DNA of 30,597 nt from Escherichia phage ESSI2_ev040: sequence record NC_049393.1; one strand, 5' to 3'. The position numbers and the translations under genes are program-made. How positions within the stretch are numbered: the stretch's first letter is position 1; each line of letters opens with the position of its first letter. The notes under the pieces were generated by a model that saw only the letters and a program-made list of their open reading frames with translations, was not told the origin of the DNA and ran no database searches. This document shows, piece after piece, positions 15-1,718 of the stretch.

Positions 15-1718
15 TTAAGCAATGATTTGCTGATACTTCTTCCGGGTCTGATCCGCTTTCTCCGCCGTCTGTGTGAACGCGACGGCATTGGTCGGAGTTC
101 CAACGGTGGGGTGCGAATGGTTCGCGCATTGCTGCGCCAGATCTGCCAGTAAATCAATGGTATCCAGCATCATAGTCAGGGCGTTGATACTCTCACTACC
201 AATATGGACAGTTGGCCCCATGACCTGCTGACCGCCTGCGGCCACTGATTTACGCAGTGCGGCAATCTTCTCTGTCAGGCTTTCGCCTACCTCCACGTCT
301 ACAGCACCGCCCACTTTAGTGGACTGCTGTCCCGCTATGTCCGTTTCTTCGTTTCCTTCAATACTGGCCAGCCTGTTACCTTTCACCGCCTGGCTATAAT
401 CACCGGCGCTTACCTGCTGGATGGCTCCGGCCAGCAGTGTGGCTGTTCCCAGTACAGTGGTTTTATCCGTGGCTTTCACCGTGGTTTCACGGCTGACCAG
501 TTCGCGCTGTTCCGTATCAGCTTTTACGGTTCGCGCCATCGATGTTTCACTGATGGTCTGATCGGTCTGCCTTATCCAGTCTCCAGCCTGAGTCACTCTC
601 TGGGATACTTCTTCCCGCTGCTGTTGCAATTGCTCACCGGGTTTAACGTCCGGCAGGCTGGTGCCATCTGGCAGCGTCTGCCTGATAAAGGGTTTATCCG
701 GTCTGCCTCCCGTGAATGCTACCTCAACCAGCGTCCCTTCTGGAGGAAACTGAAACATACCTGAATCATTCCCGGCCATTGGTACCGGCAGCGGCACCGC
801 TGAGTAAACTGGCGTCTGATTATCCGGGTTTCCGTCTGCGTCAAGCAGCTGCACGTCCACGGCATAACGTGGCCGGAAGGGATCGGCAAAGTTACCGCTT
901 TTTACTGGCTCAGAGTGCGCCACGACTCTGGCCATCTTTGGCAAATGAAGCCCGGATGCCAGTTCCGGGTAATGGCTTTCAATCTGTCGTTGCGCCGGCG
1001 TTTTCTGCAAAGGTTTACCCGTTGCGCGGTTTCTCGGCGTCCATGTGATCGCCATCGTGTCATTCGTCAGGTGAACTTTAGTCACGCGTTCACCGTTCAT
1101 CTCCACCCCTGGCCGCAGAGTCTGGATCACAGGTAATGTCACAGAGTTACCGCCAGCAACCTCCTGGCTGAACTCTGCCGGGATTTCTACGGGGCGACCG
1201 GCAAACAATGATTTTTCTGCGCCGCCGACGTAAAGCGAGCCATCAGGTAACTGGTACCAGATGTAATCCTGGATACTGAACGCCCTGCCCAGATTGTTCA
1301 GTAACTGATAACCAGTACCGTTATGGGTAAAATGTGGGATGGGGGTATCGCTGTACTGTGCGTCAGGCACACTGACCGTGATCCCGCTGTTTTCTTCCAG
1401 CCAGTTCGCAATTTCACGCAAAGTCGGGTGTTGAAACGAACATGGCCACATCCTTTCAAACACACCTGCCAGTTCACGAATGAACAGACGCTGAAAACCG
1501 TTTTCCGCGGGCTGCGATCGCTCCACATACCCCGTAAACCAGCGCAAAAGCAGATCGGTATACCCCACATCCAGCCGCACCAGTTTTCCGGTGTAATCGG
1601 TTGTTGTCTCTGCGGTAATGAAGCCCCGGCCGCAGCTGTTCAGCTCCAGTACCAGGCTGGCATCCACCAAATGAACTTCATCCGTTGAAAGGTAAAGGCG
1701 TTTTACTGGTTTCATCAT
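15..1718 (-). CDS. putative baseplate hub/central spike protein (gp27/gp5- or VgrG-like fusion)
   Basis: 567 aa; internal segment GTLVEVAFTGGRPDKPFIRQ resembles the gp5/VgrG OB-fold signature; C-terminal NHSH motif near the end like spike apex H-x-H motifs; last gene of the coupled tail operon. Confidence 0.5.
   Translation of the reverse strand: MMKPVKRLYLSTDEVHLVDASLVLELNSCGRGFITAETTTDYTGKLVRLDVGYTDLLLRWFTGYVERSQPAENGFQRLFIRELAGVFERMWPCSFQHPTLREIANWLEENSGITVSVPDAQYSDTPIPHFTHNGTGYQLLNNLGRAFSIQDYIWYQLPDGSLYVGGAEKSLFAGRPVEIPAEFSQEVAGGNSVTLPVIQTLRPGVEMNGERVTKVHLTNDTMAITWTPRNRATGKPLQKTPAQRQIESHYPELASGLHLPKMARVVAHSEPVKSGNFADPFRPRYAVDVQLLDADGNPDNQTPVYSAVPLPVPMAGNDSGMFQFPPEGTLVEVAFTGGRPDKPFIRQTLPDGTSLPDVKPGEQLQQQREEVSQRVTQAGDWIRQTDQTISETSMARTVKADTEQRELVSRETTVKATDKTTVLGTATLLAGAIQQVSAGDYSQAVKGNRLASIEGNEETDIAGQQSTKVGGAVDVEVGESLTEKIAALRKSVAAGGQQVMGPTVHIGSESINALTMMLDTIDLLADLAQQCANHSHPTVGTPTNAVAFTQTAEKADQTRKKYQQIIA

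Follow-up and report, generated by a model that had tools for sequence, protein, structure and literature searches.

A probable hub–spike fusion protein encoded last in the tail operon of the ESSI-2-like Escherichia phage ESSI2_ev040

Identification of the probable hub–spike protein

The tail operon of Escherichia phage ESSI2_ev040 (NC_049393.1; 30,597 bp, which whole stretch we refer to as the window) finishes on the minus strand with an open reading frame (ORF) at 15..1718 that is intact from its ATG start through 567 codons to a TAA stop. We propose that, in the contractile tail of an ESSI-2-like prophage of the HP1 subgroup of the Peduoviridae, its product is very probably the central hub–spike, or cell-puncturing device, the hub being at the N-terminal and the spike at the C-terminal end of one chain (Table 1). 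A fused, VgrG-like hub and spike had been claimed in an earlier note made from the sequence of this window, and the predicted fold, a match to the T4 gp5 β-helix, and the existence of split homologs all agree with that claim. The fusion is real but ordinary, and is already known for the HP1 subgroup, because Table S1 of PMC10612066 (footnote d) states it for HP1 P51739, whose N-terminal half corresponds to gpD and C-terminal half to gpV; the window adds one near-identical copy. The novelty that possibly remains would reside in structural detail only; namely, in the compact hub and the possible helical-hairpin apex of the predicted model.

At the sequence level, the 567-aa protein matched PHROG 2258, annotated as a 'baseplate protein', with an E-value of 1.1e-276 (amino acids 2–567 against positions 1–544 of the 544 in the profile). 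In the C-terminal part, crystal structures of the T4 gp5 C-terminal β-helix matched amino acids 410–508 in phmmer (E 7e-8), and the Pfam family Gp5_C was recovered at 23.3 bits, above its cutoff of 20.4 bits. The gp5/VgrG-type OB-fold signature that the earlier note had singled out, GTLVEVAFTGGRPDKPFIRQ, was located at amino acids 328–347 (window positions 678–737); in that region the Pfam family Phage_base_V aligned with amino acids 309–345 at an E-value of 1.3e-4 and 22.7 bits, slightly below its 23.8-bit cutoff, and the VgrG structure 6sjl aligned with amino acids 292–355 (E 0.0036). Phage_base_V was matched by 22 of the 56 aligned homologs (best E 2.8e-6), Gp5_trimer_C by 7, the DUF2345 domain of VgrG by 5, and the 'GpV Apex motif' by 3. 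By itself, this sequence evidence is suggestive of a fused hub–spike; the OB-fold, for its part, finds weak support in the sequence but strong support in the predicted fold.

An AlphaFold2 model computed from the 56-sequence alignment reached a mean predicted local distance difference test score (pLDDT) of 92.2, and its best Foldseek matches—full-length, with E-values from 1e-19 to 1e-14—were the single-chain spikes of extracellular contractile injection systems (eCIS) and type VI secretion systems (T6SS): AlgoCIS, AnaCIS, Pvc8, Afp8, and several VgrGs. The model comparison recommended in the earlier note thus returned VgrG, Afp8, and Pvc8 as full-length counterparts, the high root-mean-square deviations of which matches are to be expected when a monomer model is set against an extended, intertwined trimer. 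The C-terminal part of the model matched gpV across 150 of 157 residues and shares its fold with gpV, gp45, and PA0616; and the N-terminal domain was recognized as a hub fold. As predicted, then, the model comprises an N-terminal hub followed by a C-terminal gpV-type spike.

Certain observations nevertheless weigh against a hub–spike. The Pfam family Phage_GPD had no match at E<=0.1 in the 567-aa protein, nor at E<=0.01 in the 56 aligned homologs; Phage_base_V, as stated above, remained under its gathering cutoff in the 567-aa protein; and the VgrG models TIGR03361 and TIGR01646 aligned only weakly with amino acids 313–396 (16.4 and 15.9 bits versus cutoffs of 121.8 and 186.35, respectively). 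In the search against hub and spike profiles that the earlier note had proposed, Gp5_C exceeded its cutoff, Phage_base_V came close to its own, VgrG stayed far below, and Phage_GPD was not matched. In addition, hhalign comparisons of the family profile with the single sequences of P2 gpD (probability 0.4%) and gpV were non-significant, though comparing a profile with one sequence has too little power, and folds were compared instead. With respect to the model, we obtained it as a monomer with a predicted template-modeling score of 0.53, its β-helix was read as coil by DSSP, and its hub is some 90–150 aa shorter than gp44 or gpD (the latter having 387 aa in P2, versus ~230 aa here). Finally, the literature searched contained neither virion proteomics nor a structure for any phage of the HP1 group.

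The C-terminal HxH motif reported in the earlier note, NHSH, is present at amino acids 533–536 (window positions 111–122), with the HSH at 534–536 (window positions 111–119) being the sole HxH of the protein. Of the 43 homologs that have the C-terminal region, 39 keep an HxH in the same column of the alignment, which conservation, as judged from the alignment, is beyond chance. The C-terminus of P2 gpV reads LHTHKHPG, similar to the HxH of the 567-aa protein; that histidine motif reportedly binds iron in the crystal structure of gpV, and an HxH of the gpV type marks self-sharpened spikes without a PAAR cap. The predicted helices at amino acids 513–533 and 545–563, which flank the HxH with pLDDT values of 93–97, are without counterpart in the gpV sequence. 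On the basis of the model, we may tentatively picture a variant apex, to which we attach some credence but would not wager on, where the HxH would be located at the turn of an α-helical hairpin rather than ending a β-structured apex, and would form in the trimer a six-helix bundle with a metal site; which arrangement would unite a self-sharpened, PAAR-independent tip with a VgrG-like single chain and an unusually small hub (~230 aa). The literature searched contained no structural description of such an apex for any phage of the HP1 group. In the spike of Salinivibrio phage SMHB1, an H-T-H has been pointed out as the presumed iron site (PMC8537503).

Fused and split versions and gene layout in the HP1 subgroup

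An exhaustive HMMER search of 1.8 billion representatives produced 720 relatives of the 567-aa protein, many of which were either 226–244 aa in length, covering amino acids 2–228, or 296–356 aa, covering amino acids 243–567. In phage SMHB1 the split halves (gp48/gp49) are adjacent at the operon end, in the order ORF34-like gene, hub, and spike; Vibrio phage 1.202.O (gp40/gp41) has them at the same position and in the same order; and a bacterial prophage likewise has them as neighbors at that position and in that order, the free-standing hub being 33% identical to amino acids 2–226 (E 2e-42). These HP1-subgroup pairs of SMHB1 and 1.202.O, along with gp48/gp49 of Pseudoalteromonas phage ACA1, consist of homologous halves in the same order, behind an ORF34-like gene that ends the operon with them, and with an HxH in the spike, but are encoded by two genes; and the spikes of SMHB1 and 1.202.O are 231–243 aa long versus the ~325 aa of the spike part here. 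In the alignment, the split spike homologs start at the linker, whose equivalent in the stand-alone proteins carries a conserved PEL..G.HLP, and it is there that the pLDDT of the model falls to 71–83.

The uninterrupted ORF of 558–570 aa, in turn, runs throughout the closest homolog clusters listed, many of whose members come from Escherichia, Salmonella, Enterobacter, Citrobacter, and Cronobacter; and the fused ORF was present in 51 of 73 phage records, as well as in the independently sequenced HP1, HP2, K139, and Kappa. As a rule, P2, Mu, and most other myophages encode hub and spike in two genes; the HP1, K139, and ESSI-2 lineages would therefore owe their fused form, most simply, to a derived joining of adjacent hub and spike genes. 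Where P2 (gpD and gpV), Mu (gp44 and gp45), and the R2 pyocin (PA0628 and PA0616) employ two proteins, here there is one polypeptide. The T6SS VgrG and the eCIS proteins of the Afp8/Pvc8/Alg8 type have the same single-chain succession of gp27-like hub, gp5-like OB-fold, and β-helix; the present gene, however, belongs to a complete temperate phage and not to a T6SS or eCIS locus, the hub is shorter, and the apex has a self-contained HxH, whereas VgrG carries a PAAR cap. As a possible structural reference we also weighed Vibrio phage XM1, a 33-kb myophage whose baseplate has been solved, but set it aside: its hub (gp13) and spike (gp14) are separate, and we found it to have no relation to HP1.

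The tblastn alignments to HP2, HP1, K139, and Kappa covered 98–100% of the 567-aa query, with identities of 40–41% for orf35 of HP2 and HP1 and 35% for K139 orf39 and Kappa kp45; and full-length homologs were also present in Aeromonas phiO18P, Pasteurella F108, and Pseudomonas phi3. The products of HP1/HP2 orf35 (UniProt P51739), K139 orf39, Kappa kp45, and gp01 of Escherichia phage ESSI2_ev015 are orthologs of similar length encoded at the same last position. HP2 and Kappa, moreover, share with the window the order sheath, tube, lysis genes, chaperone, tape measure, DUF2590, J, I-like, fiber, Tfa, orf33, orf34, and orf35; in these two phages, in ESSI2_ev015, and in the window, the hub–spike gene is the last of the tail operon, behind the orf33- and orf34-like genes. 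Since HP2 and Kappa have this exact order, the layout is standard and invariant in the HP1 subgroup, and no oddity of the window. The Peduoviridae have been divided into an HP1 and a P2 subgroup, the former including the ACA phages, whose tail sheath initiator, gpU counterpart, and cell-puncturing device were linked to those of P2 by HHpred (PMC10612066, 2023).

The earlier note had described the layout as non-canonical, which description is valid relative to P2 only, and even P2 has its hub gene last, the F operon ending with T-U-D before ogr, attP, and int. Common to both subgroups, then, are the tube initiator and the hub as the final late genes, near att/int; the HP1 subgroup differs in placing the W-J-I-fiber block between the tape measure and the initiator–hub module and in having V appended to the hub. 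The two positional claims of the same note proved correct: the fused protein comes after the fiber, Tfa, and two further genes; and no separate V-like gene precedes the block corresponding to W-J-I-H-G, the tape-measure ORF overlapping the DUF2590 ORF with no room between them.

The window represents an ESSI-2-like prophage of the genus Quadragintavirus (Peduoviridae) with an essentially complete genome; the locus has the capsid, terminase, portal, and lysis genes, the integrase, and the repressor of a complete temperate phage. Outside the tail region it contains P2-type head genes, the lysis cassette, replication genes, the repressor, the integrase, and two cargo genes. ESSI2_ev015 (30,584 bp) was 97.7% identical to the window over the 9.2 kb of the tail region searched and, in a later blastn, ~98.6% identical over 25.4 kb of its record, and Escherichia phage ESSI2_ev129 was 96% identical across the first 9.2 kb; about 3% of the residues of the hub–spike differ between this copy and the proteins of those two phages. 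In the RefSeq record of ESSI2_ev015, the gene order is the same and the hub–spike homolog is labeled 'baseplate protein'.

Positions 29,485–29,700 of the window match DNA directly downstream of the hub–spike gene in ESSI2_ev015 and in an Escherichia coli chromosomal prophage, which suggests that the window shows the complete phage genome in circularly permuted form. Past the hub–spike gene, that chromosomal prophage continues with a small hypothetical gene, an acetyltransferase, an AAA ATPase, and then the host gene mntR; with cargo and host DNA at that site, no tail genes would be missing to the left of the window. The further tail genes or separate hub–spike pair whose presence there the earlier note had advised checking did not appear in the related complete phage genomes or in the chromosomal prophage, where only cargo genes and host DNA followed.

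Proposed mode of action and alternative explanations

By analogy with the structures of P2, Mu, the R2 pyocin, and VgrG, from which we infer the oligomeric state, the metal binding, and the order of events, three copies of the 567-aa chain would associate into a trimer, whose hub domains of ~230 aa would be seated under an ORF34-like hexamer, plugging the distal end of the tube and docking the DUF2590, J, and I wedges; and in that position the trimer would nucleate the wedges. The OB-folds together with the intertwined β-helix would form a needle, at the tip of which a metal ion, in P2 gpV iron, would be bound by the three HxH pairs and stiffen the apex. Upon contraction of the sheath, the tube would drive this one-piece tip through the outer membrane; and because hub and spike form a single chain, the whole trimer would leave the tube tip together, as in the T6SS VgrG, before the exit of the DNA.

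Alternatively, the fused chain might be a precursor that is cut within the linker (amino acids ~231–259) at assembly, so as to leave in the mature tail a separate hub and spike such as P2, Mu, and the relatives with split genes have, with the fusion serving only for 1:1 co-assembly; which possibility we judge improbable. Within the C-terminal two-thirds of the model, confidence is lowest in the linker, which coincides exactly with the gene boundary of the split homologs, and T4 gp5 undergoes proteolytic processing during assembly, which precedent we count in favor of a cleavage; yet no protease motif was seen in the protein nor were processing data found, M262 has no internal ribosome-binding site, and the similar fused VgrG, Afp8, and Pvc8 are single full-length chains in the matched solved structures. 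A separate spike produced from an internal translation start was also considered, but rejected, M262 being the only methionine in the linker region and having no Shine–Dalgarno-like sequence upstream.

We consider it quite improbable that the C-terminal extension is not the piercing tip and that some other protein, such as the ORF33-like product or a small PAAR-like cap, has that role. The ORF33-like protein is without an assigned function, and PAAR proteins do cap the tips of T4 gp5 and VgrG; but the C-terminal region not only aligns with gpV along 150 of 157 residues but also ends in a conserved gpV-type HxH, ORF33 is missing from relatives that retain the hub and spike genes, and nothing else in the near-identical ESSI2_ev015 record is annotated as a PAAR, hub, or spike protein. 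Next to no probability, in our opinion, attaches to the long ORF being an artefact, from either an error of sequencing or assembly or a recent pseudo-fusion of two genes: the two-gene versions in relatives might have given rise to such a suspicion, but the breadth of conservation of the 558–570-aa ORF effectively refutes it.

The identification provides a function for a protein that most genome records call a 'hypothetical protein'. Furthermore, the natural occurrence of fused and split hub–spikes within the HP1 subgroup makes this group convenient for asking whether the covalent linkage alters the release of the spike after penetration, though that question is modest and incremental.

In the way of annotations, hub–spike homologs of 63–64% identity in MK972713 (Salmonella phage SW5) and OM095401 (Yersinia phage vB_YenM_324) were found either under 'head completion protein' (in SW5, for example) or beside an 'adenine glycosylase', both of them erroneous labels within this family.

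Neighboring tail genes and cargo locus

Table 1. Coordinates of the hub–spike gene, its domains, and the neighboring tail genes in the window
Feature	Position	Strand	Remarks
Hub–spike fusion gene (very probable)	15..1718	-	567 aa; ortholog of HP1/HP2 orf35, K139 orf39, Kappa kp45
N-terminal hub domain, compact, gp27/gpD/Mu gp44-type (predicted)	1029..1718	-	aa 1–230
Linker, two short helices (predicted)	942..1028	-	aa 231–259; matches the N-terminus of stand-alone spike homologs
gp5/gpV/VgrG-type OB-fold domain (predicted)	669..941	-	aa ~260–350; contains GTLVEVAFTGGRPDKPFIRQ; β-strands 261–349 in the model
Triple-stranded β-helix region (predicted)	183..668	-	aa ~351–512; boundaries inferred
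Apex region	18..182	-	aa 513–567: helix 513–533, HSH 534–536, helix 545–563
ORF34-like protein, predicted tube initiator, counterpart of P2 gpU and R2 pyocin PA0626	1718..2263	-	181 aa; Pfam HP1_ORF34 E 4e-54
ORF33-like protein	2235..2996	-	253 aa as listed, start uncertain; PHROG 1677 'unknown function'; ESSI2_ev015 homolog annotated 726 nt
Tfa, fiber-assembly protein	2950..3537	-	
Tail fiber	3537..5111	-	
gpI-like wedge protein	5122..5715	-	PHROG 1228 tail protein E 4e-89; Pfam Tail_P2_I weak, E 0.0019
Baseplate_J wedge protein	5702..6940	-	Pfam Baseplate_J E 3e-29; start codon uncertain
DUF2590, presumed sheath initiator (P2 gpW/T4 gp25 position)	6883..7230	-	115 aa; Pfam DUF2590 E 1e-45; directly after the tape measure as in HP2, Kappa
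Tape measure protein	7209..9176	-	Pfam PhageMin_Tail E 6e-23; PHROG 28

Among the neighbors, the ORF34-like protein was predicted with a tail-tube fold and a core pLDDT of ~90; and because its best fold matches are tube initiators and 'ripcord' proteins, it is, as modeled, the counterpart of P2 gpU. In P2, a 2026 preprint puts a gpU hexamer between tube and gpD hub. This assignment identifies the ORF34 family, which is widely mislabeled 'adenine glycosylase' in Vibrio genomes, as that of the predicted tube initiator. Searches of PDB sequences with the ORF34-like, ORF33-like, and DUF2590 proteins returned no matches; and in NCBIfam there was no model for the neighboring tail proteins, the 567-aa protein having given sub-threshold VgrG matches only.

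The ORF33-like protein was 28% identical to HP2 orf33 (E 2e-20) and had no match in Pfam. A counterpart is absent from Vibrio phage 1.202.O, which keeps the initiator, hub, and spike genes; and gp46 of SMHB1, when compared as a candidate counterpart, exhibited no similarity. It may act as a glue, may stand in for LysM, or may be an accessory of the fiber.

The tail operon encloses the lysis cassette (9608..10736, minus strand), with the tube gene (10746..11201) on one side of it and the tail-assembly chaperone (9364..9624) on the other, which placement recurs in HP2 and Kappa. Its genes encode a holin (10434..10736), an endolysin of the M15 peptidase type (10106..10447), and overlapping Rz/Rz1-like spanins (9768..10106 and 9608..9907). 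Between the chaperone ORF, of the Phage_TAC_10 family, and the start of the tape measure at 9176 there is a gap of ~190 nt, which in P2 is the usual site of the programmed -1 frameshift extension of the chaperone (E/E').

The cargo locus downstream of the hub–spike gene varies in content. From the integrase to the window end, the plus strand encodes an Abi_C (abortive infection C-terminal domain) protein at 28432..29286 and a hexapeptide-repeat acetyltransferase at 29969..30523; the related prophage of E. coli AHB29 carries at the equivalent site a different cargo, consisting of an AAA ATPase, a serine O-acetyltransferase, and a small hypothetical gene.

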